The translations under genes were made by a program, and so were the position numbers. A stretch of 64,000 nt of DNA, from IMG/VR virus record IMGVR_UViG_3300030104_003092; one strand, 5' to 3'. The stretch is from an uncultured virus (IMG/VR IMGVR_UViG_3300030104_003092) (taxonomy: Duplodnaviria; Heunggongvirae; Uroviricota; Caudoviricetes). Each line of letters begins with the position of its first letter. The first letter of the stretch is position 1. The notes beneath the pieces are model-generated. The model was given only the letters and a program-made list of their open reading frames with translations, had not been told where the DNA came from and made no database searches. Below, piece after piece: positions 451 through 26,680 of the stretch.

Positions 451-470
451 AAAGAATCTACATCGTAGTA

Positions 471-1460: not shown

Positions 1461-1464
1461 AATG

Positions 1465-1483
1465 TGATTTGATTTTTGGTTTA
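1465..1483 (-). promoter_or_regulatory. Conserved early-gene leader, copy 2
   Basis: Exact 19-bp copy (23 bp shared with copy 1); TATCTTTA promoter-like motif just upstream at ~1501-1508. Confidence 0.85.
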
Positions 1484-1548
1484 TAATAATTTTACTCAGC
1501 TAAGATATAAATTAATATTGGATTACCAAAACTTTTATTTCAGCTAAT

Positions 1549-1588
1549 AAAAAAACTCCCCAATGCTAGTCAAAGCATCAAGGAGTCT
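1549..1588 (-). terminator. Probable rho-independent terminator
   Basis: Minus-strand ACTCCTTGATGCT..AGCATTGGGAGT hairpin plus T-run downstream of the 1617-1982 gene. Confidence 0.65.
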
Positions 1589-1616
1589 TCCCTCACTAAC
1601 CAAATGTATATGTGTG

Positions 1617-1982
1617 CTAAAAACTTGTCAAGCAATTGGGACAACAGGAGAACACATCTGTGTACTGCACCACTTCATCACACTTATTACATAAATCTGT
1701 ATATATGTGCGTAGTATCATTACCACTATCATCATCCTTAATCATCTCTTTCATCACTTCCATTGTCACTCCCTCTGTTTCCCTCCACATCTGAAAGTAA
1801 TTCTGATTCCTATCGCATAACTCATGTATGTCGTTAAGGTCTGTAATTAAACTATAACCTTCTATTTCGGGTAACTCAAGTGTACCTTTATCCACATGTG
1901 AGAGAACTCTATTGATACTCCTCTCTATTAGCTTTAACCTAACTAATAACTCGTGTTCTTTAACTGAAAAATCTACCTTCAT
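1617..1982 (-). CDS. Hypothetical protein with C-terminal zinc-ribbon-like CxxC...CPxC
   Basis: CNKC...CCPNC; part of a co-oriented gene run. Confidence 0.7.
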   Translation of the reverse strand: MKVDFSVKEHELLVRLKLIERSINRVLSHVDKGTLELPEIEGYSLITDLNDIHELCDRNQNYFQMWRETEGVTMEVMKEMIKDDDSGNDTTHIYTDLCNKCDEVVQYTDVFSCCPNCLTSF

Positions 1983-1994
1983 ATCTGATTATTT

Positions 1995-2510
1995 TTAAAT
2001 TCTACTACAATAAACACTCTCTAATCTTCTGTACTGAAAGTCATATTGGTCTAGAGAATGGTAGAATATACCATCATCTGTAGCAATAGCTTTATCTTCT
2101 CTTGTATCTTGCAAAGATTCATCTTTAATAACGTTCTTTTCATCATTAAGATAATCCTGTAACTCTGCCTCTCTATCAGCTATAGCTTTAGCAAATTCTA
2201 TCTGATTGAGTATACGTACTTCGTTTACGTTACATAGTATCTCTACTGCGTAAGCATCTTGTGGTAAGGTATAGTAACGATAGCTTCCACTATCATCAAC
2301 ACCATCCTCTGATATGTCATAAAACTCATACCCATTCTTAACCTTCTCTACTACCATAACATCTTCCTCCTCATTCTTGTAAGCCTCAGTCTTACAATAA
2401 GCATCAGCCTCTTGTTTAGTATCAAAGATTCTAATCTCTACACCATTATCTGAAGCATAATCTACTCCATTCCATGTATCTACTGCGATGTACTTTTTAC
2501 TCTGTTTCAT
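1995..2510 (-). CDS. Hypothetical acidic early protein
   Basis: 171-aa ORF tightly packed with its neighbours. Confidence 0.75.
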   Translation of the reverse strand: MKQSKKYIAVDTWNGVDYASDNGVEIRIFDTKQEADAYCKTEAYKNEEEDVMVVEKVKNGYEFYDISEDGVDDSGSYRYYTLPQDAYAVEILCNVNEVRILNQIEFAKAIADREAELQDYLNDEKNVIKDESLQDTREDKAIATDDGIFYHSLDQYDFQYRRLESVYCSRI

Positions 2511-2691
2511 TTTGTTCTTGGTTTAATTCGATTAGTAAATTAGTATTCTCCTCTTTTATCAACTCTTTAGCTTGTAAAAGATTATCCACATTACTGAATG
2601 TAACATGCTTTACATCTCCAATAAATGTGTGGAGAGTCTTGTTGTCGTCTATGTAATAACTATCTATCATCTTATTGTTCTTTAATTCCAT
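2497..2691 (-). CDS. Hypothetical protein
   Basis: Overlaps neighbours in operon fashion; start may be the second Met (2670). Confidence 0.65.
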   Translation of the reverse strand: MELKNNKMIDSYYIDDNKTLHTFIGDVKHVTFSNVDNLLQAKELIKEENTNLLIELNQEQNETE

Positions 2692-2836
2692 AGATTTCTA
2701 CTACATCCCATCCTCTTGCCTCAAGGATTTCTTTTATGTCTTCCTCATTATCTGAAGGTAAGTCATAGGCATTAATTGCATATGCTCCACCTTTGGCTCT
2801 GAACATACACATAAAATAAATAGTCTTGTAATTCAT
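2672..2836 (-). CDS. Small hypothetical protein, 54 aa (not in ORF track)
   Basis: MNYKTIYFMCVFRAKGGAYAINAYDLPSDNEEDIKEILEARGWDVVEIYGIKEQ*; directly follows leader copy 3. Confidence 0.7.
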   Translation of the reverse strand: MNYKTIYFMCMFRAKGGAYAINAYDLPSDNEEDIKEILEARGWDVVEIYGIKEQ

Positions 2837-2838
2837 TT

Positions 2839-2873
2839 TGATTTGATTTTTGGTTTAACATTTTACAAATGTA
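2839..2873 (-). promoter_or_regulatory. Leader copy 3 plus Bacteroidota -7 promoter element TACATTTG
   Basis: Leader at 2839-2857; CAAATGTA at 2866-2873 reads TAnnTTTG on the minus strand. Confidence 0.8.
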
Positions 2874-3204
2874 TAAAAAAAAACTAACTATGCAAATCTT
2901 ACAATAAAACATAGTTATCCTCTTATTCAATTAGTATTGTAAGTGAGCCATTCTCTCAGACGTGTTTGGATAACGATGATACGCAGAATGTATACGTGTA
3001 CGTTAACCAAACGTGGATTATTTTTTTAAATTTATTTTAAAAGAATATATATGTGTGATACGAATGGTATTACATTAGTTGGCGAAGTTACAAGAAATAT
3101 TTTATAAAGTCAAGTGATAAATGTATATGTGATAAAAAAAGTATAAAAGTTTTGATATTTAAAAATAAATAAATAATATTGCAGAGTAAACTAAAAATCA
3201 TATT

Positions 3205-3588
3205 ATGAAAAACAACAAACTTATAGCAGAATTTATGGGGCTACCAAAAGAGAAGGTAGGTTTAAAACAAGAAGTTATTTATGGTTTAAATCAAGATGAT
3301 TGGTATACTCCCGATAACTTAAATTACCACCTATCTTGGGATTGGCTTATGCCTGTAGTGATTAAGATTGGGGGTACCCAAAATATTCTAGGTGCAATGC
3401 GTAAACTTAGACCTTATGGAGTAATTCATACTCTTGATGATGTATATAAAGCAGTAGTAGAATTTATTAAAGAGGATAACAAAGAATACAAGACTTGCGA
3501 TAAATGTTCTTACGATAAACTTGATGACAATGGGGATGTATTAGAACACTATTGCGAAGATGATGAATTACATACATCAAACAATTAG
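3205..3588 (+). CDS. Hypothetical phage protein
   Basis: NKLIAEFMG...YHLSWDWLMPVV motif, recalled from Bacteroidota phage proteins. Confidence 0.8.
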   Translation: MKNNKLIAEFMGLPKEKVGLKQEVIYGLNQDDWYTPDNLNYHLSWDWLMPVVIKIGGTQNILGAMRKLRPYGVIHTLDDVYKAVVEFIKEDNKEYKTCDKCSYDKLDDNGDVLEHYCEDDELHTSNN

Positions 3589-3593
3589 AAATT

Positions 3594-3986
3594 ATGGGAT
3601 ATAGAAGTGAAGTGTACATAGCAGTGCCAAAAAAAGCAGAGAAAGAATTAGATGCAGTAATGAATGAGCATGACTTGTTTGAAAAAGATATGCATGGCGA
3701 TTCACCATTTAATAAATACGACCACGAACAGAAATACATAGAGTGGGATACCAACGAGATAGGTGTAGAAAATCCTAAAAAATCAATTAAATTTGTTATA
3801 TACGAGGGCAATTGGCTTAAGTGGTATGAGGAATATGATGATGTTAAATCAATAACAAGATTAGTAGAGGAATACGAGCCAAGTGGTGCGTGTATGGTAT
3901 GTGTGGGAGAAGATGGTGCAGTACACTCTGACATGGGAGAGTATAGCGATGTGTTTAATGTATATGTAAAAGTAGAATTAGCTTAA
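3594..3986 (+). CDS. Hypothetical phage protein
   Basis: MGYRSEV...LKWY...VGED pattern; operon context. Confidence 0.8.
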   Translation: MGYRSEVYIAVPKKAEKELDAVMNEHDLFEKDMHGDSPFNKYDHEQKYIEWDTNEIGVENPKKSIKFVIYEGNWLKWYEEYDDVKSITRLVEEYEPSGACMVCVGEDGAVHSDMGEYSDVFNVYVKVELA

Positions 3987-4002
3987 CTTAAATTAAATAA
4001 AA

Positions 4003-4458
4003 ATGGAAAACAACACAATTGAATGGGGTTGGGAAGATTGCCAGCCATCCAACATGAGAAGCAAGGAACACCAAAAATTCCTTATCGAACAATACAATCG
4101 CAACAGACCGATTGATAAGCAAGTTAAAAACATGGCTGAATTAAATAGAGCCTTATTAGATAACGAGATAAAGTACTTTGGTATGCGTAGCGTTAAAATA
4201 ACTGAACGCAGAGTATACCACAAAGCAGTTAAGATAACTATCGAACTACCTAAAGACTTACCATTAGAGGATACTGAAGAATGGTTAGATAACAATAAGA
4301 CTAAGTGGGAACAATCCTTAGATAATAAGTTTAATGATGCTACAATTGAGTATGGTCTTGGTTTTAATAATCCTTTATGTGATGGTATGAACGAATCTAT
4401 GGCAGACAGAGAGACAAGGTATGATGTTAATGGTGAAAAATATGGAGGGCATATATAA
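4003..4458 (+). CDS. Hypothetical protein
   Basis: A-rich leader; stop overlaps the next start. Confidence 0.75.
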   Translation: MENNTIEWGWEDCQPSNMRSKEHQKFLIEQYNRNRPIDKQVKNMAELNRALLDNEIKYFGMRSVKITERRVYHKAVKITIELPKDLPLEDTEEWLDNNKTKWEQSLDNKFNDATIEYGLGFNNPLCDGMNESMADRETRYDVNGEKYGGHI

Positions 4459-11484: not shown

Positions 11485-14400
11485 TTAATTTGCCAACTCT
11501 TGACTTGCTCTCATGTATATGTCATTAGCTAACCATGATGGCATTTTAACATTAGCTCCCGTCATTATTTCAAGTATATCTCCACCTTTACCTCCAGACA
11601 TTATTAAACCTTTAGTTATCTTTACCATATCTTTATGATACGATTCAAATTTAGAGTCGTAAAAATAATCTTCTTGATCTGTATATCTTCTTTTTGTTTC
11701 ACTTTCATTTGACAGTGAAAACTTTTCTCTATTTACAAATGGTGTTGTCACCCTATCTACAATATTTTCTTCACCTCTAGTTAGTTTTTTCATCTTACCA
11801 TAAGTATCTGTGTAATCAAATTTAGCAGATGTGTATGGAAGTAGCCTTGTATTTCTTAGTCCCATCATAGCTAAAAGCTCTACAGAAACACTTCTATTAG
11901 TATCAGTTTTTACAGCAGTTTCACCTATTTTAACAATTTGATTTAAAGTAGATGGACCTATCTTTTGTCCAACATAAGCAATACCTTTCAAGAACATTAC
12001 AGGATAACTATCAGTCTCGTTAAATATTCTACCATTCTCATTTTGTAAAACTTCAAGTAACGCATCAGTTGTCATATCTATAGATAAAAATGGTTCGTAT
12101 ATTTGTTTTACAACTCTAGTAAAAGACTCAAAACCTTCAGGATCTCTTAACCCTTTATATATAACCCTAAATGTATCTCTAATAAATCCAGTACCAGACA
12201 TCTTAGACATATTTACATAATCTATGTATGGAACCTCTCGTCTATAGAAAGGACTCTTAGGATTCATATCAACGATTGTACCAGTACCTGTTTGAATGTT
12301 GTGACCATTTCTATCCCATTCAGCTAATATTCTTTCAATATGTTTATTTAACTGAAAGTCATCTCTATTTTTAAGAGTCATGTCAAACTCCTCATCATCA
12401 TCATCACTAAATGCTCTCATCAGTGCTACAGCTCCATTGTATCCTAACATAGCTAATCCCACTTGAAGAGTTTCTGTTAAAGCAAGGGATGCAAAGGTGC
12501 TAGCCATTCTTTTTGATCCTAACTTTTTGAGTTCAGGATTATTAGATTCCATCTCTTCTTTAGCTAAAACAATACTGTTTTTAGCACATCTCCAAGTTTC
12601 TGCCTGGAAAGCAACGAATGTACCAACCAAAGGAAACTTACCAATACTTGCTATGAAAGCAGGTATCTCATCATAATTAGGATATATGTTTCTTATATTT
12701 CTAGCAGCTTGTCTTTCAGCAAGAGCCTCTGGAAAACCTGCTCTCATATATCTATTTTTTTCTACCATCCAACCAAAGAATTTAAAAACATCATCCTCTG
12801 CCTGATACGCTTTAGTAAGTATCTTATCTAAACTAAGTACTTTATCTTTAGCTAAAGCTTTAAATCCTTCAGCATCATCCGACTCATTATAGTAATCCAT
12901 GAAATCAAAATCAGCCATATCTAGTTGATTCATTATTGCATTTATCTCTTGAAGAAATGCGTTTGTATTTACCACACCAAGATCTACGAGTCTTTTATAT
13001 ATAGCATCCATCTTAGCATCCTTCTCGTTACCCATAAATTCATCTTTAACGAATTTTATAACATCAAGAGCTTCATTATACATTTTACCATTTAAAGGAA
13101 CGTGACCAGCCATAAACACAAATGATGAGTTACCGACAACATTTCTACCATGAGTACCTAAACTATATATAGTTTTGAATTTTTTACCAAGTAACGATAG
13201 CATTAAATAACCTCTGAGTGTTCCACTATTTTGAGCAGACATCACAGACTCATCAAAAGAATTTAAGACAGAATACATTTCATTGTCTACGAAATACCCT
13301 TCAAGTGCTCCCCACTTTCTACCTTTTAGTTGGTTACCTGAGAACCTCTGAGATTCTCCCTCTGGTAAACTAGCATCACCCTCCATAGGTGCTGATATAA
13401 AATCACCTAGACCAATAGATAATAAATCTTCATATAATCTATCAGAGGCTATTGTTTGTGCGATCTTACCAACTGTAGTTATGTAGTTGTTGTAAGGATC
13501 GTTAACCTCACCTAATAGATTTCTAATCTCTTCTGGTAAGTTTTCATTTCTAGATTTGAATATAGATGTGTCTGCAGTAATAACTTTACCAAACCCTTGA
13601 CTTAAAAAGTCTAATGATCCAGACTCTCTCCTTAGTATAAGGTCAACTTTTTTCTCAGCCATGTCATAAAGCTCGCTATCGCTTTTCCCTTCGTTAGCTT
13701 TCTTACCTTTTAACTCAGAAACTATAAATAAAATAGCTCTATTCCTTACATCTTCTGTTGGACTGTAAGCTTTTTTACCATACAACTTATACTTCCTGTG
13801 AAGGTATATACCTCTGTTTGCATCTATAGCAGCAGCTAAAGGACCGTCAACCAAGCCTTCTTCAATAAGTATAGCACCTAGTTGTTCAATATGATTAACC
13901 ATTACATTAATTATATTTAGCAACTCTTTGTTACCCTTAAGCTCTTCTTCTAATCTAGCTTCTTTACTAGTTAATAGATTCTGTATTTTATTATGCCCAA
14001 CTCTTTCATTTATCATATTTTTTTTCTCCTCAGCAGTGGCATCTTTATACTCTTGAGTTTCTTTTATCTCAGTTATTACTTTATCTACAAACTTTTTTAA
14101 TGCTCTAGCATTTTCGTTAGCATTATAAAGTGCTAAGTTAAGACCACCCTTAGCATAAATCATAAGGTCTTTTATATCCTTTCTACTATGAGTTCCTTGA
14201 GGTTTAAATATTAACTTACTAGCTCTTATGTCGTATTTTCTACTTGAGTCGTAAAGTTTTGATTTAGGATCTAATTCAGATAGAGTATTACCCTTTTGAT
14301 CTTGGCCAAGTTTAATTCTACTTCCATAGTATCTTAGTCCAGTTAAGTGTCTACCTAACTCGTAATCTGCATTTATAAACGATGCCTTCATATCAAATAA

Positions 14401-17400
14401 GAATCCAAAAGCATCACTTACATATACAGTCTTATTGTTGTTATCCTGTAATGAAAATCTAGATGTTGGGTTTACTTGAACTGGTGCCCAAACACTAGAC
14501 ATAAGTTCACCATCCTGATCATACAAGAACCCTTGGAATCCTGCACTCTCAGCTATCTTAGCCATCTCCTCTTGCTTATTATAATTAATGGTGTTAGCGT
14601 CAACCTCTTCTATAGTAACATCACTACAGTTTTCATTTATTATATCTGACACCTCTTGGTTACCAACTCCGTAATTTATCTGAATTGATAAACCAGTATC
14701 TGTTTCAGACATATTCATGACATTTGTGTTGTCACCATTTTCACTATCATCAATCAAACTCTTTATCTTAAACATAGATGTTGATACTGCTGTAGCATCA
14801 TCAGTGTCAAAATTTAAAGTAGCAAGATTTCTAGTCCCCTCTGATTTAAACTTACCTATATTATAATCTGCCATAGATGTAATATCTAATGGATCAATAT
14901 TCAAAGGATATAATCTATCAATAGGGAATAGAGATTTATTTTTTACGCCCTCAGTATTTAAGTTAGACTCGTCATCTTGGTTAAGGCTAAACTGAAGTCT
15001 AGGTCTAGCCCAGTCCATTAGTTTTGACTTAGCATATCCACCTACAGGTTCAACAGCAGGATTAACAATACCATTACCTTCCTGTGCGTATCCAAACATA
15101 GTGGCTACACCATCATTTATATTAACGTAATCGTACTCATCTTCTATATTTATATAGCTATTATCTAATGCTTTAACTTGATCAGGATTAATCACTACCT
15201 TACCACTTGAATTTAAACTAAACTTAACAACACCTTTGTTCTCGTTTAGTTTTTCAGCAAAAGGTTTAACAGGTATAGATTTTAACCCTCTTGGTGCAAA
15301 CATTTTAGCACCATCCATAGCTTTCACATAATCATCTATTTTTTGAATATGATCTTTAGTGAAGTCTATAAGAGATTCACTTGGCGGTATGTATACATTA
15401 GAATCCATCGACACCACCTCTCTTACTGTTCGAGTTTCTCCAGGTGAAGTTACACTATAATCTCTAAAATATTTTTCTAATACTTTATCTTTAAATTTAA
15501 TTATAGTCTCATTAAGATCAGCTCTAGATCCTATATCAGCTCTAAATTCCAGTATTCTGTTTTGGTTAACTCCTAAAGTGAATCCTAGTTTTGCTTCATC
15601 AATAAATTGTTCCATTCTTCCCATAATTCTAGAACGTTTTATATTATCTACCAACCTATATATTTCAACTAAATTATCAATACCAAAACGATTTGTTTCG
15701 TTTGGATGATTGTTAAATGAAAATATACCACCTATACCTGATCTACTAATTCCTGATCGTGATGACAATTCAGATCTAGCTTCTGATTTAAATGATGGAA
15801 ATGTATCTTGAGCAACTAAAGCATCTACTATTTGTCTAGCTAAATTTATAACCTCACTTTCATAATAAACTTTATCTTCTTTATATGATACCTCTTTATC
15901 TAATAGCTCACGCATACGAACAGGATCAGACGTTACTATGTAATCTACTAAACTAGCAATAGTGTTGCTAAATCTACTTTCATCTTTTATTTGAACACTA
16001 GGATTGTATGCTATCTGAATTAAATCAAATAACCTGTTAGCAGCAAACTCGTATGGGTTATCATTTACTATAACTTTATTAGAGTCTTCAATAGCCCTTT
16101 TTATATTGTCATTTACAATTTTTATGTTGTCCTTAAACTGATCTATATTACTAGATGACTGCAAAATAGAGTTGTAATTAGTTATACCCTCTATGTCAAG
16201 ATCAAAAAGACCACTATCCATTGCTTTTATTGACATTATTGAAGATATTGTAACATCAACAGCACCCTGCTTCATTAACACTTGAGATATATTTGAGTCA
16301 AACTCTATATCCTTAATATTTTCAGCAGTCAATCTTGTACCCTTCTTAATCTTGTAAGGTTTTTTTGGAGCTCTAGGTTTTACATTTAGATTAGTTGCTG
16401 GAACCATTCCATCATTAGTAGATTCAGATAAGTTAATTACATCAACCTTTGAAGGTACATCACTTAATCTATCTATCTGTGATAAAGCAATAGAAGGTAG
16501 GGTAGTTTCATATATACTAGCCCTTTTTCTAGACTTATCATTTCTACTCCAGTTCTGAAGTTCTATAACTGTATCTGTATCAGGGAACGTTATATAGTCA
16601 TACCCTTCTTCAGCAGCCATTTTTAATAAAGTTCTTATAAGTAAACCATTTGATTTTGAAACTGTCGACCAAGGTAGAGCAGTATACAAATCTGGATCCG
16701 CATCAACAGACTTATCAAGCTGAGACTGTTTTATTCTGGTTTGAACATTAACATCAGATCTTTTAGGAGGCTTAGTAGTTGGTCCTATTAAATCCCCTTC
16801 AGTTATACCAACACTAGACATAAGATTAACCTTTTCCCACTCAGCCACCATTTTATCAAAGACTCTTTTCTCTTCCTTAGTTATATTCTGTTGCCAGTCA
16901 GATTGTATTTCTCTAATAAACATAACCTTACTACCATCATCAGTAGTTCTATCATCTATCCTAGCCCAACCAAGAACAGGTTTAAAGTTTGGAAAGTGAC
17001 TATCAGATACAGGAATACTTAATTTGTTTGGTGGGTTTTTATACTGAAGCACAACCTCTCTATAGTTTTCTGATTGTGGTATCTTTCCCATACCATATGC
17101 TTCATGCTCTGAGTTTGGTAAGAAGTATCTAGTTAAATCATTAAGGTTACGAATAACCATATTTCTTCTTCCCTGAACGTTTTTATACTGTTGAAAATCT
17201 TCTGTCTTAGTAACCTGTGCTCCAAAGTATTTATATATATACTCTTCTATCATTGCGTCAGGCAGATAACGATCATCACCTTTGTTTACATACAAGTGAT
17301 GACGAGCTAAAGTATTACATAACTTTCCAATGCCAGTTGAATAAGAATTATTTTTAGACAACCTTGACATAAGCTCAATAACACTTGTTGTTATTGTCTG

Positions 17401-20400
17401 CACTTCACCCTCACTACCATAAGATATATCAAACGTTATTACAGGTGATTCAATTACACCTCCAGTCTCTATTAGGGAAGTTGTAAGATTATCATAATCT
17501 TCAGGGTCTAATAGATCTCTTAAAACATCTTCAACACTTTGTAAGTCTTTATTTAATAAATCAGCTCCGAAAGAATCAAAAGGGTTTTGTTTACTATCTA
17601 AAAAATTTAAAGTAACAGTCTCACCCTCATCAACAACATTTCTTACATCAAAGTTTTGAGCAACAACCTCCTTCTTAATTACGTTACCAGTTCCTAGCTT
17701 CTTACCATATAGATAATTAACCTTAACCTCAGGGTCTAACAAATTAAATACGTTTAGTAAAAGATCTAATGACATTGTATTATACCCTATGTTATTTAGT
17801 TCTTCCAAAAACCCTACAGAAGATATTTCATCTCCTATTCCAGGAATGTTAGACTTTCTAAGTAACTCAACCCACTTTTTAGGTGTTAATATTTTATTAG
17901 CATCATTAGTAAACCTAATGTTATTTATAGCTTGACGAACATTAGATGTGTATACTATTTCTGGTCCAGGTCTTTTAATAGAAAATTTAATTCTACCACT
18001 TTCATCTTTTTCAACCTCGCTATAGTTTTGTTTAAATATACTTTTAACTTGAGTGTCAGGATCAAATACAGCTATGTTTTTATACTCAGCTTCATTATAC
18101 TCCTCACTAATAAAATAAGAGTCAAACCCTAATTCTTTTATAAGGTGAGCAAACTGTTCTATAGAAGCGTAATTATGAACGTTTTGAACTTTAAAATTAA
18201 ACTCATCTATTTTATTTCTAGTTTCAATATCTTCTAAGTCAAAACCTTCATCGACTAAATACTCTGTATAAGCATTAGTTATTATATCAACGTGATCTAA
18301 ATTTTCATAATCAAAAGGGTTGTCTGATTTTATATATACAGGTATAACATTATATCCACGTTTTTCATTAGCATTCGTATTGCTAGAATTGTACTCACCC
18401 CCTGCAAATAAGTTTGCAAAATCTGAATTAGGAGTAAAGAAAATACCCTTAGCATTATCTAATCTATTTCTACCAAATGATTCAAATTCAAACTTAGTAC
18501 CATGATACATAACTCTAGGGTCTCCATCACTGTCAACTATCTTAGAATTACCAAACCACTCATTAAAAGAATCAGTTCCAACTGGTGCTATGCCATTATA
18601 CTTAGATTGACTAGATAATGAGAACCTACTATACTGTAGTTCACCACCAGTAAAATCATCTGCAATATCAGGTACTGCAAAACCACCGTACATAAACGTA
18701 GAGTAAGCATTGTCTACTGTTTTTTCTGATAGTTTTACTGGTCTTCTACCCTCTTTCAATGCTCTCTCCATTTCTGTATTAGAAGAGTAATCAGGGAATA
18801 CATCCACTATACTAGCGAACTTATTAAACATTCTAAAGTTAGAACCTTTTATAGCAAATGGGTATCCAGGATGATGACCTACATCACCAGGTTTTGTTTC
18901 TACAATCTCAGAGTTTAAATCTATTTCTATAGCACCCACTAGATCACCTTTCTTAGCTTCAGATAAAACATTGTCACTAACAAAAGATAAAAGATTTTCC
19001 TGTCTTGGTAATCCTAAAGTTTTAAGAAGAGTTTGACCTAAAAGCATTTTCATGATTTTATTTCTACCACCAGTAGGAGTTCCTCTCATATAAGTCATAA
19101 AATCAGATAGACTTCTAAACTTAGAGTCTGGTAACTTTACACCCATAGTATTAAAAATATTAACAACACTAGAGCTACTAACAACATCATTTAATCTCTT
19201 AGTTAAAAATCTTTTACCAATCTTCTTTTTATTTATACCATCTATTAATTCTTTTTCTATGTATTCTATAAAATTTATATTACCTAAAATACCAGTTGGT
19301 GCTTGCACCATAAACACCATAGTTTTTACTCCATTCTTTCTCATGGAATCTAAAACTTCTTGTGCTTTTTCTTTTGTAGTATATGCCCAACCTAAAGCTC
19401 CTTTAAGCATAGGATATAGTATACCACCCATCATTTCATGCTGTATTCCATTCTCACTGGTAATCAAAGAAGCAGTTGACATATCTATTGCTGAAACAGA
19501 TACAAGTTTACCATTAATATCTAGTATAGATTTAACAGGTATATCTTGTTCTGTAAACCCTAATCTTCTACCCTTTTCTGAAATTTTTATACCTCTATAT
19601 GACTCTACATCATCAGGCATATCTAATTCCTCAGTAACTACAATATCACCATTCTCAGACATACCCTGTGAGGCTTTATCAGTTTCTAAAGAGAACTTTG
19701 ACTCAGCAGCAGTTTTACCAAAAACAATATCTTTACCTCCTACGTTTATATTCTTACCATCAACGACAGCTCTTTTAAATGCTGATCTCATTTCAACACC
19801 ATCCATGTCAGCTAAAGTTAACATGTCTAAGTCTTTACCTCCACGATTTAACTTACTCATTAATTTATTAAACCTGTCTTCACCAAGTAAGGCAGTTAAC
19901 ATAGCCTTTATAGCTTCTTTTACTTGACCAATAAAAGACTTATTACCTGCAAATCTTTGAGCTCCAGCATCACCCATCATCTCAGCAAAAGCCTCTTCTA
20001 TGATAGCAGACTCTAACTCGCTATCTTTAAGACCCTGAAGTTTAAAAATATCTTTATAAGTTTCTTTCGCCCATTCGTAGTAAGTTTTACTCTCGTATCT
20101 TTTTCTTTTACCATTAAAGAAACGTTTTTTAACATTAGAGTTTTTTATAGTTTCTTCTATCTTCTTGTAAGCCTCTTTACCTTCTTTTGTTTTCTTTAAT
20201 GTTGACACTATAGGATGAACTATCTCATGAAACATTGTATTTAAACTAAGGGCAGAAGCGTTTACATATATTTTACCATCTCTTGCATATACTGCTTTAC
20301 CTTGTGCTGCAGCTATTTCTGCAGTTATACCGCTACCTAAATCAACATTATTTTGTATTAAGTGATTTTTAAAAGTTTCAGAGTTTCTAGCTATAACTAT

Positions 20401-23400
20401 AGACATCGAACCACTTACTGAATTAAGAATGTTAACCATGGTTCCCAATATATTTTGAACAGTATCAGGAAAATCTTTAATGTAGTCGTTAAGCTGATCA
20501 ATATTTTCAGAGTTAAACTCTTGAGCAAAAGACTTATCACCTGTCTTTCGTATACCTATGTACTTAACCTCACCCTTAGCATTTTTAATAGCTATAACAC
20601 CACCCTCACGAAGAGATTTAACACCTCTAGTTCTAGCAGCATCTTGAGTGCTACCATCAGAGTAAAGTATACCACTCTTGCTAGAGTAGGTGTATTGCTG
20701 ATTAAAGTCTCTAGTTAGTTTTAAAGCTTGATCCTTAGATATTCCAGTGACTATATATGATTCTTTTCTAGCACCATCCTGACTACTTACAACTTTCTTA
20801 AAGTTAGCACCTAAACGTTGTAATCTTCTTTTAAGGTTTGCAAGTTGATTAGCGTCAGTCTCTGCACCAGAATTTTTACTACCTACAGTAAGAACGTAGT
20901 AACCACCTTCAGCCTGCAACTCTTCATTAGTAACTGTTTCTATTTCACCTTCAGGAACGTTGTTAAATATTTTATTATTATTGATTTGATTTGCGTCACC
21001 ATCCTTAGACTTAGACATGGCTTTTCTATTAGCTTTACCATTATCAAATATAGTTTTAGCCTGCTGATAAGTTAAGTTAGCTACATCAACAGATCCTTTT
21101 TGCTGTTCTACACCTTTTACTATTACTGTTGGTCTACTTTGACCAATAGGTAGGTAATTATATAAAGCTTCTGTAAATCTAGACTTACCCCAAAACTCTT
21201 CTATTTGCTCTAGTGTAGGTTCTAATACACCATCTTTCCAGTTGGTGCTTCTGTCTGAATTAAACCTCTGAAGCATTCTATTTAAAAGACTCATATCACT
21301 ATCACTAGGGACATAAGTATCTGCATCAAAATTATCGACTACATTAGTGTTAACCTCAGAGTTTTTAAATTTATTTGGTGAGTCTATAACTATATCTGTA
21401 CCAGTTACTCCACCTCTTCTAAAAGACAAACCTTCATAGTTATCAGTAAACTTAAAGTTTTTAATTCTTATACCCTTCTTCTCAAGTGATTTTTTAAATT
21501 GATTTAAGTTCTTAGAAGAGTTATCTATTTTAGATAAAAAAGGATTTTCTTTTACCTGGTTTTGTAATCGTTCTAATCTAAATTGAACTTCGTTGACAAT
21601 ATTACTTATAGCACTACCAGATACATCTTTATTAGTATCTAAATCTTCTAGCTTAGATAAGGACTCTTGAAGTTTTTTCTCTGCTTTGTGAAAGTTTTTT
21701 AAAGCTTTCTTACCATCATTACTAGCTAAACCATTTTCCAACTCATAAAGAGTTTCTTGAAACTCAGGATTCATAGAGGCATCTATACTGACATCTTTAT
21801 TAAGGAACTTCTTAAGATTGTTTTTGTCTCTTATAAAAGAATGTACACTCCTGTTATTCATCTCTGTTGTTTCACCAGTTATGTTGTCTGTTACTGTGTA
21901 CTTAAAGTTCTCATTAATACCCTTTGTGGTAATCATATTATAACCAGTTGCTACAATAGCTTTACCACCACCTGCAGCACCCATCATACCAAACATACCA
22001 ACACCAGCTAGATAAGCATCACCTATTCTTGTACTTATTTCGTAAATACCTTCAGCAGTTGGAACGCCAGTAATCATATCTGTAGTTATGTTAGCAGCCT
22101 CAGTTAAACCTTCAGACACACCCTCTGCATTAGCAAGTTTAGCTATTTGTATAAATGCAGACTTAGTAATTTCTTTAGTAACTTCTTCTTTACCTTTCTT
22201 TGCTAATATGGCTTTAGGTATTAATTTAACAGCATCACTTAAACCATCTAACAAGTCAAGGGTTTTCTTTTCAAAAAATACTTCTACAAAACCACTTGCA
22301 GCAGCGTTAAATAAAATAGCTGTGTCACTTAACCCACCCTTTACATTTCTAGCACTAAGCTCTTCTAATTCGTTTTTAGTTGTACCGTAAGCAGAGGCAC
22401 CCATAACACCAGCAGAAGTCCATTTTGCAATACTCTTTCTTCTTTTAGCACCTGCTATGGATTGGTATCTTTTAGATACACCCTTAGTTAAACCTTTACT
22501 TTTTTTAAGTATTTTTTTACCAACAAACTTACCTCCAGGAATCCTACCAATAGTAGCACTTATACCTAACATTTGTATCATCTGAGGTGCAGACTCAAGA
22601 ACACTTGACACTAACTGAATACCAGCATCTGAAACATTTCCGTTAAGTGCTGAGTTTAAAACACCAGGATATTGGTAAACATATTTTCTTTTTTCAGATT
22701 CTTTTACAACTTGAAACATTGGGTTAGAGGCTGGTCCACCTTCCTTCATATACTCGCTATAATTACCTGAAGCAGCCATTAAAGGAAACTCTACTGCGTC
22801 TGCTTGACCAGCAAAAGATCTAACACCACCTCTTATAAAAGAATCAAACCATTCACCAAAAACACCATCATAATCTTTTTGAGTTTTCTTAAGGTTCATT
22901 AAATCAATACCAGCGTCTTCTTCTGCAAAAGAATCAGATATTTTTACATCGTTAACACCAGTTTTTAATCCTTCATTAAAAGACAAACCCTCTTCATTCT
23001 CAGGGTCTTTTATTAAAGCATCATAAGCCTCAGCAAATGTCGCATCTTTATATTCACCACCATCTGTTTTTATCTGAACATTAGAAGATCTTACATAACC
23101 CCAGTTTAGTTCATTTTTTTCAGCAAGTTCATCATACATATCTATACCACCGTCCTTTTCTTTAACGGTTTGCAATATGCTCTCATAAAGATCTGTGTGG
23201 TAATCAGTTGTTGCTTTTACGGATTGTTCATCAGTTCCTTTAAGTTTGTCATTAATATCATTTATTTGAGACTCCAACTCCATCACCTGACCTCTAAGTG
23301 AAAAGTTTTGAGCCAAATAAAATTCAGGAGTACCTTCTTCTTTAGATCTTCTTGCGTAGGTAATTAAATTAGGTAACTCCTCACCCTCAAGCTCATCTTT

Positions 23401-24108
23401 AATCATAATATCAAAAAAAGATGATAAAGGATTAAAATTTTGTTTTAAGTAAGCTTCTCTTCTTTCATCAATTTCATCTGCACTTATCTTATCCTTTCTT
23501 ACAAAGGTTCCGCCTTCTTCTTCGTATTGATAAAAATCTCCTTCAAAAAGTCTTATGTTTTGTCTAGCAAGAACATTATCAAACATTTGACTTCTTAACT
23601 CTTTTCTTTGATTTTCTAAATCTCCTCTCTTATTTAGATTAGTTTTTCTTGGACCATAATCAACACCTTCTTTATTAAAATACTGAGACATTACAGATTC
23701 TCTCTGCTCAAAAGTATTGTTTGATAAATCAATTGGTTCTGTTGGTTCTTGTTCTTGGGTCTTACCCTCTCTTTTAGATATAGAGTTATCTAAGAATTCT
23801 TGATCCGATGAAATAGGCTCTTCCAAAGAGTCGGAAGGTGTATCCTGAGAAATCCCCTGTATCGAGTTGCTCCATATGGTCGACTCTTTTTTTTTTACTT
23901 CTTCACCTTCTGGTTGTTCTGATGCAGCTCCCATAAGTGAAGCAAAATCTCCTACACTTTTAGTGTAACCATCATTTTTAAATAAACCATATGAGTGAGC
24001 TAACGCTTCAGGATTTGAAGACATTAATATTTTAAACTCATCTATACTTTTAGTGTATCCGTCATTTTTAAACAACTCAAATGCACGTTGAATAGCTTGT
24101 TCGTTCAT
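11485..24108 (-). CDS. Giant polyvalent virion/ejection protein (4207 aa) with HExxH metallopeptidase, DUF3293-like and ADP-ribosyltransferase-like domains
   Basis: HEIVH (aa 1294) plus EEAFAE (aa 1371); YHGT (aa 1868)..GIFFT..VYIKSDNP..IAVFDPDTQVKS; HFP..REIQSD domain; last gene of the virion block. Confidence 0.85.
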   Translation of the reverse strand: MNEQAIQRAFELFKNDGYTKSIDEFKILMSSNPEALAHSYGLFKNDGYTKSVGDFASLMGAASEQPEGEEVKKKESTIWSNSIQGISQDTPSDSLEEPISSDQEFLDNSISKREGKTQEQEPTEPIDLSNNTFEQRESVMSQYFNKEGVDYGPRKTNLNKRGDLENQRKELRSQMFDNVLARQNIRLFEGDFYQYEEEGGTFVRKDKISADEIDERREAYLKQNFNPLSSFFDIMIKDELEGEELPNLITYARRSKEEGTPEFYLAQNFSLRGQVMELESQINDINDKLKGTDEQSVKATTDYHTDLYESILQTVKEKDGGIDMYDELAEKNELNWGYVRSSNVQIKTDGGEYKDATFAEAYDALIKDPENEEGLSFNEGLKTGVNDVKISDSFAEEDAGIDLMNLKKTQKDYDGVFGEWFDSFIRGGVRSFAGQADAVEFPLMAASGNYSEYMKEGGPASNPMFQVVKESEKRKYVYQYPGVLNSALNGNVSDAGIQLVSSVLESAPQMIQMLGISATIGRIPGGKFVGKKILKKSKGLTKGVSKRYQSIAGAKRRKSIAKWTSAGVMGASAYGTTKNELEELSARNVKGGLSDTAILFNAAASGFVEVFFEKKTLDLLDGLSDAVKLIPKAILAKKGKEEVTKEITKSAFIQIAKLANAEGVSEGLTEAANITTDMITGVPTAEGIYEISTRIGDAYLAGVGMFGMMGAAGGGKAIVATGYNMITTKGINENFKYTVTDNITGETTEMNNRSVHSFIRDKNNLKKFLNKDVSIDASMNPEFQETLYELENGLASNDGKKALKNFHKAEKKLQESLSKLEDLDTNKDVSGSAISNIVNEVQFRLERLQNQVKENPFLSKIDNSSKNLNQFKKSLEKKGIRIKNFKFTDNYEGLSFRRGGVTGTDIVIDSPNKFKNSEVNTNVVDNFDADTYVPSDSDMSLLNRMLQRFNSDRSTNWKDGVLEPTLEQIEEFWGKSRFTEALYNYLPIGQSRPTVIVKGVEQQKGSVDVANLTYQQAKTIFDNGKANRKAMSKSKDGDANQINNNKIFNNVPEGEIETVTNEELQAEGGYYVLTVGSKNSGAETDANQLANLKRRLQRLGANFKKVVSSQDGARKESYIVTGISKDQALKLTRDFNQQYTYSSKSGILYSDGSTQDAARTRGVKSLREGGVIAIKNAKGEVKYIGIRKTGDKSFAQEFNSENIDQLNDYIKDFPDTVQNILGTMVNILNSVSGSMSIVIARNSETFKNHLIQNNVDLGSGITAEIAAAQGKAVYARDGKIYVNASALSLNTMFHEIVHPIVSTLKKTKEGKEAYKKIEETIKNSNVKKRFFNGKRKRYESKTYYEWAKETYKDIFKLQGLKDSELESAIIEEAFAEMMGDAGAQRFAGNKSFIGQVKEAIKAMLTALLGEDRFNKLMSKLNRGGKDLDMLTLADMDGVEMRSAFKRAVVDGKNINVGGKDIVFGKTAAESKFSLETDKASQGMSENGDIVVTEELDMPDDVESYRGIKISEKGRRLGFTEQDIPVKSILDINGKLVSVSAIDMSTASLITSENGIQHEMMGGILYPMLKGALGWAYTTKEKAQEVLDSMRKNGVKTMVFMVQAPTGILGNINFIEYIEKELIDGINKKKIGKRFLTKRLNDVVSSSSVVNIFNTMGVKLPDSKFRSLSDFMTYMRGTPTGGRNKIMKMLLGQTLLKTLGLPRQENLLSFVSDNVLSEAKKGDLVGAIEIDLNSEIVETKPGDVGHHPGYPFAIKGSNFRMFNKFASIVDVFPDYSSNTEMERALKEGRRPVKLSEKTVDNAYSTFMYGGFAVPDIADDFTGGELQYSRFSLSSQSKYNGIAPVGTDSFNEWFGNSKIVDSDGDPRVMYHGTKFEFESFGRNRLDNAKGIFFTPNSDFANLFAGGEYNSSNTNANEKRGYNVIPVYIKSDNPFDYENLDHVDIITNAYTEYLVDEGFDLEDIETRNKIDEFNFKVQNVHNYASIEQFAHLIKELGFDSYFISEEYNEAEYKNIAVFDPDTQVKSIFKQNYSEVEKDESGRIKFSIKRPGPEIVYTSNVRQAINNIRFTNDANKILTPKKWVELLRKSNIPGIGDEISSVGFLEELNNIGYNTMSLDLLLNVFNLLDPEVKVNYLYGKKLGTGNVIKKEVVAQNFDVRNVVDEGETVTLNFLDSKQNPFDSFGADLLNKDLQSVEDVLRDLLDPEDYDNLTTSLIETGGVIESPVITFDISYGSEGEVQTITTSVIELMSRLSKNNSYSTGIGKLCNTLARHHLYVNKGDDRYLPDAMIEEYIYKYFGAQVTKTEDFQQYKNVQGRRNMVIRNLNDLTRYFLPNSEHEAYGMGKIPQSENYREVVLQYKNPPNKLSIPVSDSHFPNFKPVLGWARIDDRTTDDGSKVMFIREIQSDWQQNITKEEKRVFDKMVAEWEKVNLMSSVGITEGDLIGPTTKPPKRSDVNVQTRIKQSQLDKSVDADPDLYTALPWSTVSKSNGLLIRTLLKMAAEEGYDYITFPDTDTVIELQNWSRNDKSRKRASIYETTLPSIALSQIDRLSDVPSKVDVINLSESTNDGMVPATNLNVKPRAPKKPYKIKKGTRLTAENIKDIEFDSNISQVLMKQGAVDVTISSIMSIKAMDSGLFDLDIEGITNYNSILQSSSNIDQFKDNIKIVNDNIKRAIEDSNKVIVNDNPYEFAANRLFDLIQIAYNPSVQIKDESRFSNTIASLVDYIVTSDPVRMRELLDKEVSYKEDKVYYESEVINLARQIVDALVAQDTFPSFKSEARSELSSRSGISRSGIGGIFSFNNHPNETNRFGIDNLVEIYRLVDNIKRSRIMGRMEQFIDEAKLGFTLGVNQNRILEFRADIGSRADLNETIIKFKDKVLEKYFRDYSVTSPGETRTVREVVSMDSNVYIPPSESLIDFTKDHIQKIDDYVKAMDGAKMFAPRGLKSIPVKPFAEKLNENKGVVKFSLNSSGKVVINPDQVKALDNSYINIEDEYDYVNINDGVATMFGYAQEGNGIVNPAVEPVGGYAKSKLMDWARPRLQFSLNQDDESNLNTEGVKNKSLFPIDRLYPLNIDPLDITSMADYNIGKFKSEGTRNLATLNFDTDDATAVSTSMFKIKSLIDDSENGDNTNVMNMSETDTGLSIQINYGVGNQEVSDIINENCSDVTIEEVDANTINYNKQEEMAKIAESAGFQGFLYDQDGELMSSVWAPVQVNPTSRFSLQDNNNKTVYVSDAFGFLFDMKASFINADYELGRHLTGLRYYGSRIKLGQDQKGNTLSELDPKSKLYDSSRKYDIRASKLIFKPQGTHSRKDIKDLMIYAKGGLNLALYNANENARALKKFVDKVITEIKETQEYKDATAEEKKNMINERVGHNKIQNLLTSKEARLEEELKGNKELLNIINVMVNHIEQLGAILIEEGLVDGPLAAAIDANRGIYLHRKYKLYGKKAYSPTEDVRNRAILFIVSELKGKKANEGKSDSELYDMAEKKVDLILRRESGSLDFLSQGFGKVITADTSIFKSRNENLPEEIRNLLGEVNDPYNNYITTVGKIAQTIASDRLYEDLLSIGLGDFISAPMEGDASLPEGESQRFSGNQLKGRKWGALEGYFVDNEMYSVLNSFDESVMSAQNSGTLRGYLMLSLLGKKFKTIYSLGTHGRNVVGNSSFVFMAGHVPLNGKMYNEALDVIKFVKDEFMGNEKDAKMDAIYKRLVDLGVVNTNAFLQEINAIMNQLDMADFDFMDYYNESDDAEGFKALAKDKVLSLDKILTKAYQAEDDVFKFFGWMVEKNRYMRAGFPEALAERQAARNIRNIYPNYDEIPAFIASIGKFPLVGTFVAFQAETWRCAKNSIVLAKEEMESNNPELKKLGSKRMASTFASLALTETLQVGLAMLGYNGAVALMRAFSDDDDEEFDMTLKNRDDFQLNKHIERILAEWDRNGHNIQTGTGTIVDMNPKSPFYRREVPYIDYVNMSKMSGTGFIRDTFRVIYKGLRDPEGFESFTRVVKQIYEPFLSIDMTTDALLEVLQNENGRIFNETDSYPVMFLKGIAYVGQKIGPSTLNQIVKIGETAVKTDTNRSVSVELLAMMGLRNTRLLPYTSAKFDYTDTYGKMKKLTRGEENIVDRVTTPFVNREKFSLSNESETKRRYTDQEDYFYDSKFESYHKDMVKITKGLIMSGGKGGDILEIMTGANVKMPSWLANDIYMRASQELAN

Positions 24109-24128: not shown

Positions 24129-25730
24129 TTAATAATCTGCCGCAGTTCCAGTTGCTTTTTGTTCAGCAGCACCACCAGCTTGTAAATATATGTAGTATCC
24201 TGTACTTGGAGCTTTCTTAGTAGTTCCAGAATAAATACCAGTAACAGAACTGGTTATATCTTTAAGTCTTACAACAACTCTTCTATTAGAACCTTCAAAT
24301 TTAACTATAGCAATAGGGGATCCATTTCTATCTAAAGAAACTTGTGTAACCTTACCTTTTGCTGAAGAATTTTTAAGTTTATCCAAAATCTCGTTATATT
24401 CTTCTTCTAACTTAGGAGTAAGAGTTCCTTTTGCTTTCATCTCTTTATATCTAATATAGTCTCTAGCATTTATATCTCTACTAGTTTGAGCTAATTCATC
24501 ATATAAAACCTCTTGATTAACCTCTCCATCCATTAAATTTACTAAAGATATTTCAACATCTCCACCAGCTTTATCTTGTATATCACTGTTATACTCTATA
24601 CCATTAACAACAGCACTTTTTTGTCTTTCATTATCTGGGAAAACATTTTCATCAAACTGTGTTTTTATATTATCAGGCATAGTAAAGTATTCTGTTCCAG
24701 AAACACCACCTTCATCTGGTGCAGGCTCTTGTCTTTTGTCTGGAGGAATAACCTCTTCTAACCTTTTCTTAGCAAGGTACTCAGCATACTCATTAGATAA
24801 AGCTTCATTAAAGTTTTCATTAACAGTTTCAGCTATACCATCATTGTTAAGATCTAACATAGGTAGTAATTCCTGTTTTTGACTATCAGTAGCTATACCT
24901 ATACTTTTTTCTTCTTGAAAAAATGCATCCATAGAGTTTACCTTTGTTATATTACCTTCCAAATCAACTACCTGAACTACACCATTTAAGTACAAGTTTT
25001 TATATTGTTGATCCGACCAATCTCCATTAGGGTTTACTCTAAGTTTATTAGCAATATCATCTGTGTACCCATCAATTTGCTCGTCTGTAAATTTTACGAG
25101 TTTAACATCACCATCATATTCTTGAGATCTTTCATCTAGTTTACCATTAACATAATCTAAAATAGGTGTGTTAGGAGTTTTTCTTAGAACATTATCCACA
25201 CCAATATCATATAAACCTAAAGCTTCATTAAAGTCAGTACCATCTTTCAAAGCTTGAACAAATTGATTCTCTAAGTTTTCATAAAGAAACATACTATTAT
25301 CATCAAGCATTAAATAAGAGTCTGCTTTGTTTTGAAGTTTTAAATTATTGTGGGTATTTAAAAGGCTACCTCTATTTACAGCAGAGTTTACATCAGCTCT
25401 AAACTGTCTTTGAAGTCTTACAAGTTCTCTGGACTCAGCACTATTAGGATTGTCTCTTATAAGCTCACTATTCTCTGCTGTATAGTCATCTATCTGTTGT
25501 TGTCTTAAAGAAAAGTAATCAGCATATCTTTCAGCACCCTCTATAGATAATTCTTTGTATAAGCTTTTATTACCTTCAGCCCTAGCTTTTTTTCTTTGAT
25601 CAGCTAATTGTTCTCTTCTAATATCAAGCTCCTCTTTTTGTAAAGCAAGAGTTTGCCTAGTAGCCTCCTCTTCTAAAAGGTTTCTATTATTCTTAAGAAT
25701 AGTACCTGTGAAAAATAAACTTTTTGCCAT
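24129..25730 (-). CDS. Putative internal virion/ejection protein
   Basis: Helical N-terminus; lies between tail genes and the giant protein. Confidence 0.6.
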   Translation of the reverse strand: MAKSLFFTGTILKNNRNLLEEEATRQTLALQKEELDIRREQLADQRKKARAEGNKSLYKELSIEGAERYADYFSLRQQQIDDYTAENSELIRDNPNSAESRELVRLQRQFRADVNSAVNRGSLLNTHNNLKLQNKADSYLMLDDNSMFLYENLENQFVQALKDGTDFNEALGLYDIGVDNVLRKTPNTPILDYVNGKLDERSQEYDGDVKLVKFTDEQIDGYTDDIANKLRVNPNGDWSDQQYKNLYLNGVVQVVDLEGNITKVNSMDAFFQEEKSIGIATDSQKQELLPMLDLNNDGIAETVNENFNEALSNEYAEYLAKKRLEEVIPPDKRQEPAPDEGGVSGTEYFTMPDNIKTQFDENVFPDNERQKSAVVNGIEYNSDIQDKAGGDVEISLVNLMDGEVNQEVLYDELAQTSRDINARDYIRYKEMKAKGTLTPKLEEEYNEILDKLKNSSAKGKVTQVSLDRNGSPIAIVKFEGSNRRVVVRLKDITSSVTGIYSGTTKKAPSTGYYIYLQAGGAAEQKATGTAADY

Positions 25731-25732
25731 AA

Positions 25733-26680
25733 CTATCTTCTGCTAAGGTAAGCACCCATTCTAGCACTTATTGTAGATAACATGTTATCTTGTTTTTTTG
25801 GTTCAGGTTCAGCTTCAGCTTGTTGCTCTTGCTCATCTTCACCTATAACATTCTCATCGTATTTAGCTACTAAGTCTTTCATTAACTCAAAAGCAGCATC
25901 TCTATCTCCAGAGCTCAAAACAGTTCTAATATCTTCAACGTCATCAGGAGGTAATATAAGTTCACCACCTGTAGCTTCACCAATCTTCTCACCATCTTGA
26001 ACCATATCAATTTTATTAGTATTATGGTCAAATTCTCCTGGAGTCACACCACCGTCTTCAGTTATCTTACCACCTTTCTTTGCTGTTTCAACTGGGAATT
26101 TATTTCTATTAACTATACCAAAATCCTGAAGACCACCAGCACCAACACCACTAGCAACATCTTCAGCACCACCAAATATGTTTTGAACACCTGCATCTTT
26201 TTCTTTTCTTATACCCTCTAATTCTCCTTCAGCAACTTTTATGCGTTGATCTTCAACCTGCCCTTGTTCTGTAGCTAAATTTTTCATAGCCTCACTTTTA
26301 GCAGTTTGTTGTTTATCAAGTAGTGCTAAGTTTTGTTTTCTAGCACTATCTTCCAAGGCATTAACTAAAGGTAAAGCATTTCTAGGGTCTTTAGATAAAG
26401 CACCCATAGCAGAGGCTCTATCAGCAGCCTGAGACTCTTTCATACCCTGAATCAAACTTTGATCTATAGGTTGATCAGCCTGCTTCTGAGTAGCAGATGT
26501 AACTTTTCTTTCTAATCTTCCTGTATCAAAAGCATCTTGAGCCTTCTTAGCTCTTCTAGCTTGAATAGCACCGTATATAGCTTTACCAGCACCTATTGCC
26601 AAAGTAGCGGCACCAATAAAAGCTTTAGGTGTTTTTTTATTTTTACTATATTTTATTTTGGGTTTAACTTTTCGTGCCAT
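25733..26680 (-). CDS. Putative internal virion/ejection protein
   Basis: Gly/Ala-rich hydrophobic N-terminal segment, coiled coil, PGEFDH..GEATGGE motif; TACATTTG motif upstream at 26696-26703. Confidence 0.65.
   Translation of the reverse strand: MARKVKPKIKYSKNKKTPKAFIGAATLAIGAGKAIYGAIQARRAKKAQDAFDTGRLERKVTSATQKQADQPIDQSLIQGMKESQAADRASAMGALSKDPRNALPLVNALEDSARKQNLALLDKQQTAKSEAMKNLATEQGQVEDQRIKVAEGELEGIRKEKDAGVQNIFGGAEDVASGVGAGGLQDFGIVNRNKFPVETAKKGGKITEDGGVTPGEFDHNTNKIDMVQDGEKIGEATGGELILPPDDVEDIRTVLSSGDRDAAFELMKDLVAKYDENVIGEDEQEQQAEAEPEPKKQDNMLSTISARMGAYLSRR

Follow-up and report, generated by a model that had tools for sequence, protein, structure and literature searches.

A giant virion-type protein and its recurring tetrapeptide

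The 64,000-nucleotide (nt) stretch of an uncultured tailed virus analysed here (IMG/VR record IMGVR_UViG_3300030104_003092, Caudoviricetes), hereafter the window, contains an open reading frame (ORF) that encodes a protein of 4207 amino acids (aa). This giant gene is the last of a structural operon and shares its strand with terminase, portal, capsid and tail-like genes. Its product joins disparate domains, namely a zincin-like metallopeptidase (MPTase) domain, an ART-PolyVal ADP-ribosyltransferase (ART) domain, a PUA-like module and two modules of no known function, and relatives carry further ones (GNAT, LPD23 and DUF7178). Because catalogued domains and disparate activities are combined within a virion operon, we place it among the phage-type polyvalent proteins (Iyer et al., 2017; PMC5512222). 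An earlier, sequence-only reading of this DNA had likewise described a polyvalent, MPTase-bearing virion-type protein, and the domains and operon setting agree with it. The features are listed in Table 1.

Downstream of the protein's sole HExxH motif (HEIVH at residue 1294), the tetrapeptide [KRQ]FS[LI] occurs seven times, at residues 1471, 1828, 2041, 2962, 3039, 3217 and 4129 (starting at nt 19698, 18627, 17988, 15225, 14994, 14460 and 11724, respectively). The sequence-only reading, which took these to be the sites at which a self-cleaving polyprotein is cut, had placed them correctly, together with HEIVH and the distal EEAFAE at residue 1371. Its single loose match ahead of the protease, NFSL at residues 268-271, is indeed the sole FS[LIVM] upstream. 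Shuffled versions of the protein carry 0.36 sites on average, and seven were reached in 0 of 3000 shuffles. The trimer FSL ranks second in over-representation (7 against 1.2 expected), whereas FS by itself is not enriched (12 against 15.4). An important caveat is that the pattern was picked by eye after sight of the sequence; for this reason, and because FS alone is unenriched, the single-protein statistic is only moderate, and we therefore took homologues as the real test. Additional RFS sites lie at residues 2712 and 3588. Across the 42 other window ORFs scanned (14,721 aa), [KRQ]F[SN][LI] is matched once, and the window's capsid, scaffold-position and small ejection proteins do not contain it.

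Table 1. Features of the giant protein and the adjoining genes (window coordinates; all on the minus strand)
Feature	Residues	Coordinates	Strand	Basis or remarks
Giant ORF, polyvalent ejection-type virion protein	1-4207	11485..24108	-	4207 aa
N-terminal region, no junction motif	1-1000	21109..24108	-	homologous in 31/35 full-length relatives (coverage at least 40%)
DUF3293-like domain	1077-1138	20695..20880	-	Pfam E 3.5e-6, 28 bits against cut-off 25
Zincin-like MPTase domain	1197-1465	19714..20520	-	alignment and fold likeness
HEIVH	1294	20215-20229	-	
EEAFAE	1371-1376	19981-19998	-	
Junction motif 1, KFSL, first past protease	1471	19687..19698	-	homologues KLSI/KFSK/KFSR/RLQK/TFQA/MFQA; pLDDT <50
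Acidic spacer, 36 aa, between tandem motifs behind protease	1475-1511	19576-19686	-	
Decayed second motif, KISE	1508	19576..19587	-	KFSL/TFSL/SFSL/KFQL in 6/7 aligned relatives
Cargo module 1	1512-1822	18643..19575	-	pLDDT 72-94 per block; in 16/35 relatives
Junction motif 2, RFSL	1828	18616..18627	-	RFSL or RFQ[IL] in 7/7 aligned relatives; pLDDT <50
Cargo module 2, ART-PolyVal domain	1859-2028	18025..18534	-	Pfam PF18760
Junction motif 3, KFSI	2041	17977..17988	-	relatives KFSL/KFQL
Cargo module 3	2045-2961	15226..17976	-	alignment; core in 21/35 relatives
Junction motif 4, KFSL	2962	15214..15225	-	KFSL/KFRL/KFKV/KFQR/KFQL/RFQA in 11/12 aligned relatives
Cargo module 4, one folded unit, ferredoxin/ACT-like subdomain	2966-3216	14461..15213	-	in 10/35 relatives
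False site QFSL inside module 4	3039	14983-14994	-	
Junction motif 5, RFSL, ahead of C-terminal body	3217	14449..14460	-	pLDDT <50
Conserved C-terminal ejection-protein body	3221-4207	11488..14448	-	homologous to phi18:3 gp123, HTVC027P gp85, others
Doubtful site KFSL in C-terminal body	4129	11713-11724	-	
Two genes upstream of giant gene (533 aa, 315 aa)		24129..26680	-	no motif, no HExxH

The motif marks module joints at which cargo turns over

Our homologue searches yielded 22 and 11 long proteins together with 42 viral and 27 metagenomic loci, and 43 non-redundant sequences were retained from 72. The protease and the C-terminal body are found in all 35 full-length relatives, which is partly a consequence of how the set was selected. 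The regions between them come and go: the ART module, for example, is found by BLAST in 6 of the 35.

Across this family the motif takes a wider form than FS, hydrophobic-[RKQ]-[FMYL]-[QSN]-small. Strict FS[LI] is absent from each of P0002-P0022, where RFQ, RMQ or KYQ occupy the same joints. In 39 full-length relatives, 182 motifs lie downstream of HExxH against 107 in shuffles (maximum 140 in 30). At the joint ahead of the C-terminal body, whatever cargo stands upstream, all 42 relatives have [RK]-x-[QSN] and 40 of the 42 have [RK]-[FMYL]-[QSN]. When clean insertion or deletion edges are mapped, 31 of 45 (from 14 of the 39 proteins) fall within 15 aa of a motif, against a null mean of 5.3 and a maximum of 12 in 2000 trials; this count overstates independence, because the proteins are related and the pattern was derived from the same family. 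Individual exchanges show the same behavior. In L011/P0029 the whole of module 3 is missing and the joint left by the fusion carries one KFQR, residues 2273-2540 of P0022 correspond to residues 1728-1995 of P0013 at a different rank but motif-bounded in both, and the GNAT and LPD23 cargo of relatives sits between motifs or right behind them. Thus cargo does swap at the motif, as the sequence-only reading had asked of homologues.

Not all seven original sites are joints, however. Those at 1471, 1828, 2041, 2962 and 3217 stand as domain boundaries, and we are very confident that the junction code is real at these five. The two around the ART domain bracket it as had been claimed, with Pfam PF18760 (E 7.7e-16, 59.6 bits against a cut-off of 31.2) falling between 1828 and 2041. 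In structural models, 1471, 1828 and 3217 lie in stretches with a predicted local distance difference test score (pLDDT) below 50 beside confidently folded domains; for 2041 and 2962, pLDDT is uninformative on account of a shallow alignment and a construct edge. The site at 3039, by contrast, is rejected as a cut site. In the alignment it coincides with a conserved W-x-R-x-R-[VLA]-[FY]-[FY] strand, with RLHFNL, RVFFNL, RLYYNL, RAFFET and RVFFYT among the forms in 12 relatives, and is modelled as a beta-strand (E89-92, pLDDT about 73-76) inside a domain spanning residues 2971-3213. The site at 4129 is doubtful: it lies in a clade-specific insertion, is found in the near clade only, and stays FS or FN where other joints use FQ.

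These assignments change the predicted products. The 77-aa and 178-aa pieces of the sequence-only reading form one module of 255 aa because 3039 is a core strand of a single fold, and its last piece of more than 900 aa is not a variable effector; these approximately 990 aa are the conserved ejection-protein body. With five real junctions of seven, there are therefore four cargo modules rather than about six. Module 1 resembles YTH/EVE/ASCH (PUA-like) domains (Z 7.3, root-mean-square deviation (rmsd) 3.5-3.8, 133-139 residues aligned), a lead that suggests binding to nucleic acid or modified bases. The ART domain of module 2 can be set against the published ART-PolyVal (Tox-ART-HYD2-like) pattern, in which strands 1, 2 and 5 contribute H, Y and D, respectively, as given in the part of PMC5512222 covered here: H1869 (YHGT) is there, strand 2 reads GIFFT, with Phe for Tyr, and the model has low confidence in part of this domain. 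Module 3 has a conserved core (an invariant H, R-x-x-D-R and E-x-Q-S-D-W) between hypervariable flanks, and this core could be catalytic. Module 4 looked ART-like by eye, but profile comparison gave a second ART a probability of 2%, and the fold matches listed for it are only ferredoxin/ACT-like. NCBIfam and Pfam gave no match for modules 1, 3, 4 or the C-terminal body, atlas searches with modules 1 and 4 no usable match, and PDB sequence searches with the protease domain and module 3 nothing meaningful.

Selection acts on the peptide at these joints. Serine codons at the motif copies are of both TCN and AGY types and vary from copy to copy, and in 11 genes 133 of 293 at motifs are identical against 161.7 expected. 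As motif codons are not homogenised in homologues either, the constraint is at the protein level, as had been surmised, and the codon counts rule out a DNA-level repeat or gene conversion. The serine position of the motif also changes in a coordinated way. Near relatives use serine (S; at times N, R or K) or glutamine (Q) across their joints rather than a random mix. Among 26 distant proteins with at least two sites, S or Q is shared within 42 of 54 site pairs, against 26.8 under the null and with 0 of 5000 permutations reaching 42, and 18 proteins are purely S or purely Q (null 10.4).

These data bear on whether the motif is read at all. A motif kept only as an inherited linker end, or as microhomology for recombination, would also be found where modules exchange; kinship of the sequences inflates the counts, and two of the seven original sites are incidental. 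On the other hand, synonymous codons are not homogenised, a change between S and Q takes two base changes per site and yet is concerted, the enrichment recurs across 50%-identity clusters, and an N-terminal swap in an Elemovirus protein (see below) occurred without any motif. We consider an explanation without a reader very improbable. The motif marks the joints of modules, is selected as protein, and is where cargo turns over.

The embedded zincin as candidate reader

The domain directly ahead of the first joint is a predicted zinc-dependent peptidase. Of 45 distinct protease sequences, 39 have HExxH and EEAFAE intact and 2 are unreadable, and the second Glu of EEAFAE is presumably the third zinc ligand, as in lethal-factor-type zincins. 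The model is compatible with a zincin fold (a three-stranded sheet with flanking helices), and its nearest folds are ATLF/PPEP-type zincins (Z 6.4-7.6, rmsd 4.1-4.4, 136-149 residues aligned), although all protease-domain matches fall below the caution mark of Z 8; Foldseek against PPEP-2 gives E 0.56.

We propose a mechanism in which a fixed chassis, made of the N-terminal region, DUF3293, the zincin protease and the conserved C-terminal body, would enclose a variable cargo cassette between protease and C-terminal body, with the peptide hydrophobic-[RKQ]-[FMYL]-[SQN]-small at every cassette joint. One reader would recognise all joints in a protein. If this reader is the embedded zincin, it would cut the joints after packaging or on entry, and four cargo modules of about 320-360, 213, 921 and 255 aa would be freed from the chassis. 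From the sequence data, we lean slightly towards cleavage of the junction motifs by the embedded zincin. The broader proposal is that a widespread clade of ejection proteins forms a self-processing plug-in cassette, in which the zincin reads hydrophobic-[RKQ]-F-[SQ], injection frees the flanked domains, and the protease evolves together with its sites (the S/Q dialects); this is plausible but tentative, and we hold it to be somewhat short of probable.

We took the best 150 of 339 protease-domain representatives listed, 148 of them new, and used 128 of the 148 after excluding close, short and HExxH-unreadable proteins. Downstream of HExxH, [KRQ]F[SQ] occurs 180 times against 123 in shuffles (maximum 144 in 25), and 38 times against 11.9 in the interval 90-200 aa past HExxH; upstream it is not enriched (95 against 96). 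The code is not universal, because module edges in this distant set carry the motif at only about twice the chance rate. The C-terminal body also has homologues free of HExxH (phi18:3, phi19:3, phi13:2, psg01 and HTVC027P); these have 0-3 loose matches and no array. Scanned with three exploratory patterns, 18 annotated phage proteins gave p <0.05 in 2 of 54 tests, and hence no general enrichment. DUF3293, which has a fixed place upstream of the protease in the near family, is found downstream as cargo in the distant P0125 (residues 1824-2013) and P0203 (residues 1732-1882), starting at a motif. Anecdotally, FSR-type peptides stand at ART and LPD23 edges in the unrelated XAI97106 (L089:21404-28567) and F116 gp60 (L082:8420-13369).

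Several observations weigh against a cutting zincin and against a general code. The first strict pattern, [RK][FY][SQ], was not enriched in the 148 distant representatives (96 against 98), and the patterns that are enriched were chosen after that result. Among distant mobile modules, 10 of 53 starts (null 5.0, maximum 11) and 11 of 60 ends (null 5.8, maximum 17) carry a motif, within the null range in both cases. No protease residue was found in the distant listing that tracks S against Q; a Met two residues ahead of HExxH seemed to track FS in the near family but fails to do so in that listing. The top fold match is the N-terminal domain of lethal factor, a binding domain of zincin fold that we take to be non-catalytic. 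Active sites are altered in 4 of the 45 protease sequences (HDIVH in L012, EQAFAE in L035, QEIIH with EQAFAE in L042, and YEIIH in L047), and in these four the motif before the C-terminal body is intact or only slightly drifted. The hardest case is L012 (4231 aa, about 52% identical), in which five of the seven sites are exact. HDIVH recurs in two database sequences, and in L012 (6302-7153), P0028 and P0032 it is accompanied by changes at two conserved upstream residues. Dolichospermum phage Dfl-JY45 XAI97106 has its FSR-type motifs at ART edges without an HExxH of its own. As for related proteins, the solved structure of recombinant N4 virion RNA polymerase (vRNAP), which contains an HExxH zincin domain, is an uncut chain over residues 1007-3500 according to the part of PMC13434306 covered here, and in the corresponding part of PMC7213743 the ArdC protease is dispensable, with no proteolysis seen.

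One way to accommodate these points is a reader that does not cut: the motif would offer a strand to dock on, or a handle, to the ejection channel, to a chaperone or to the zincin fold, and the cargo would remain tethered. A handle could help to pack, unfold or thread a giant protein module by module. It would be in keeping with the four relatives that keep motifs beside damaged active sites, with the lethal-factor binding domain as closest fold match, and with N4 vRNAP, which in the consulted portion of PMC13434306 stays whole and is pictured, in a beads-on-a-string model, as tethered after ejection; the concerted S/Q switch likewise requires one reader, which need not cut. Nevertheless, 39 of 45 sequences retain the catalytic residues, and motifs are confined to the region downstream of the protease, though upstream domains need threading too. 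In addition, three of the four damaged proteases belong to one small-cargo group (L035, L042, L044 and L047, with L044 intact) whose first motif has also decayed. The slight drift at the remaining site of L042 and L047 hints, from two cases, at relaxed selection, and the group may represent a natural loss of processing in progress. We regard a purely docking role as unlikely, yet worth keeping in mind.

Alternatively, the joints could be cut by a different protease, either one of the host or one of the phage that acts in trans. Motifs that outlast protease damage in cis would then be expected, as would the XAI97106 arrangement, where a nearby gene has an HExxH, a hint of action in trans. Against this, no second HExxH was found in the 42 window ORFs, although the window is possibly not the whole genome, and no protease is annotated among the 30 window proteins scanned. 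The capsid and scaffold-position proteins lack the motif, and a fixed host enzyme poorly explains a switch between S and Q among close relatives. Cutting by another protease thus seems improbable to us, and cleavage by the embedded zincin remains the reading that we carry forward.

An acidic spacer of 29-36 aa behind the protease recurs in several relatives from both clades and may act as an inhibitor or be released as a peptide. Near the N-terminus, residues 10-55 (23950-24108, minus strand) contain a short tandem duplication of LFKNDGYTKS. Many relatives are similar in this region, which is possibly a capsid-targeting signal. Pfam found no family above cut-off in the N-terminal region, which is probably the ejection or anchoring part.

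Genomic setting, related phages and implications

Residues 3424-3941 of the giant protein match Cellulophaga phi18:3 gp123, a virion protein by its tandem mass spectrometry annotation, and on this homology the product is probably a polyvalent ejection protein that is packaged in the virion and injected. The gene order of 315 aa, 533 aa and giant corresponds to phi18:3 gp120/121/123 and to Elemovirus gp20/19/18. This order fits an ejection-protein trio, in which the 533-aa and 315-aa products are probably the smaller ejection proteins by their position. The capsid matches those of Elemovirus, Maribacter phage Panino and Cellulophaga phages, and among the window's products is one of 762 aa that bears a C-terminal sorting domain for type IX secretion (52470-54758, minus strand; Pfam E 3.4e-12). 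Because of this sorting domain and the capsid matches, the carrier is probably a short-tailed phage of marine Flavobacteria. A search for tRNA found none. Other genes on the minus strand include a GroES-like phage co-chaperonin (47543-48106), upstream of terminase and portal, and a coiled-coil-rich 1622-aa protein in the virion operon (31958-36826) with no PHROG match.

The cultured Elemovirus (Flavobacterium phage elemo) gp18, YP_010109083, a protein of 3694 aa, has the same place after two smaller genes, in a phage with a homologous capsid. It carries DUF3293, HEIFH and the motifs RFQA 1683, RQQK 2079 and RMQK 2302 at homology-block edges, but is only about 22% identical over 600 aa and has other cargo. 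All four isolates compared keep the three motifs. Strict [KRQ]F[SQ] shows no enrichment in this protein (1 against 2.9), and no cargo swap is visible among the four Elemovirus proteins, whose cargo is identical in kind. The elemoD protein is nearly identical to its counterpart except for a swapped N-terminal region (L093 against L052, residues about 100-850, 19-53% identity per 100 aa), which possibly reflects host-envelope specificity. Pachyviridae phi18:3 gp123, the virion protein detected by mass spectrometry, shares the C-terminal body and the gene position, but has neither HExxH nor a motif array.

Like the polyvalent proteins of Iyer et al. (2017), the window protein is giant and multidomain, lies in a virion operon and combines a zincin MPTase with ART-PolyVal, with LPD23 and GNAT in relatives. 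It differs from those proteins, as far as the consulted portion of PMC5512222 describes them, in having a fixed chassis that encloses a cassette and a definable joint peptide that changes in concert. That portion proposes MPTase autoprocessing, citing the processed P1 DdrB, and cites N4 vRNAP, ArdC and TraC1 as unprocessed; its text names no recognition-site motif, although the supplementary alignments may show one. N4 vRNAP (gp50) and crAss-like gp65-67 are also giant ejected proteins with a zincin domain, but no RNA polymerase was detected in the window protein, and N4 vRNAP is reported as unprocessed. A preprint on phi14:2 suggests cleavage of fused crAss polyproteins (10.1101/2020.03.07.982082), and neither it nor PMC13434306, in the parts covered, gives a site motif for the N4 or crAss proteins. 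For the phi24B gp47 peptidase a peptidoglycan role is suggested (10.64898/2026.04.10.717836, in part), and the portion of PMC9503650 consulted says nothing on sites. We found no paper naming the junction motif in a literature search that left most subscription papers outside its reach. The sequence-specific zincins of the PPEP/ATLF and PprI types resemble the protease domain in fold (Z 5.5-7.6, hence below 8, with identity of 11-16%). These zincins are not known to be embedded in their own substrate.

What is new here is an explicit joint motif in a polyvalent ejection protein; the polyvalent type and the 2017 autoprocessing proposal were already known. Autoprocessing of polyvalent proteins has thus been predicted since 2017 without a site, and candidate sites with corrected product sizes can now be given. 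The junction system is testable because a cultured phage, Elemovirus on Flavobacterium sp. BAL314, carries it, and the natural active-site variants among relatives are a further resource. If the proposed mechanism is true, it would account for the passage of unrelated enzymes through a narrow tail as parts of one 470-kDa protein, and for the cassette-wise exchange of early effectors between phages. If the plug-in cassette is true as well, the code would allow domain boundaries to be predicted in giant phage proteins that lack annotation, of which there are thousands, and the proteases would form a new sequence-specific family. Even if the joints are not cut, the motif offers a practical boundary marker for parsing cargo domains of unknown kind.

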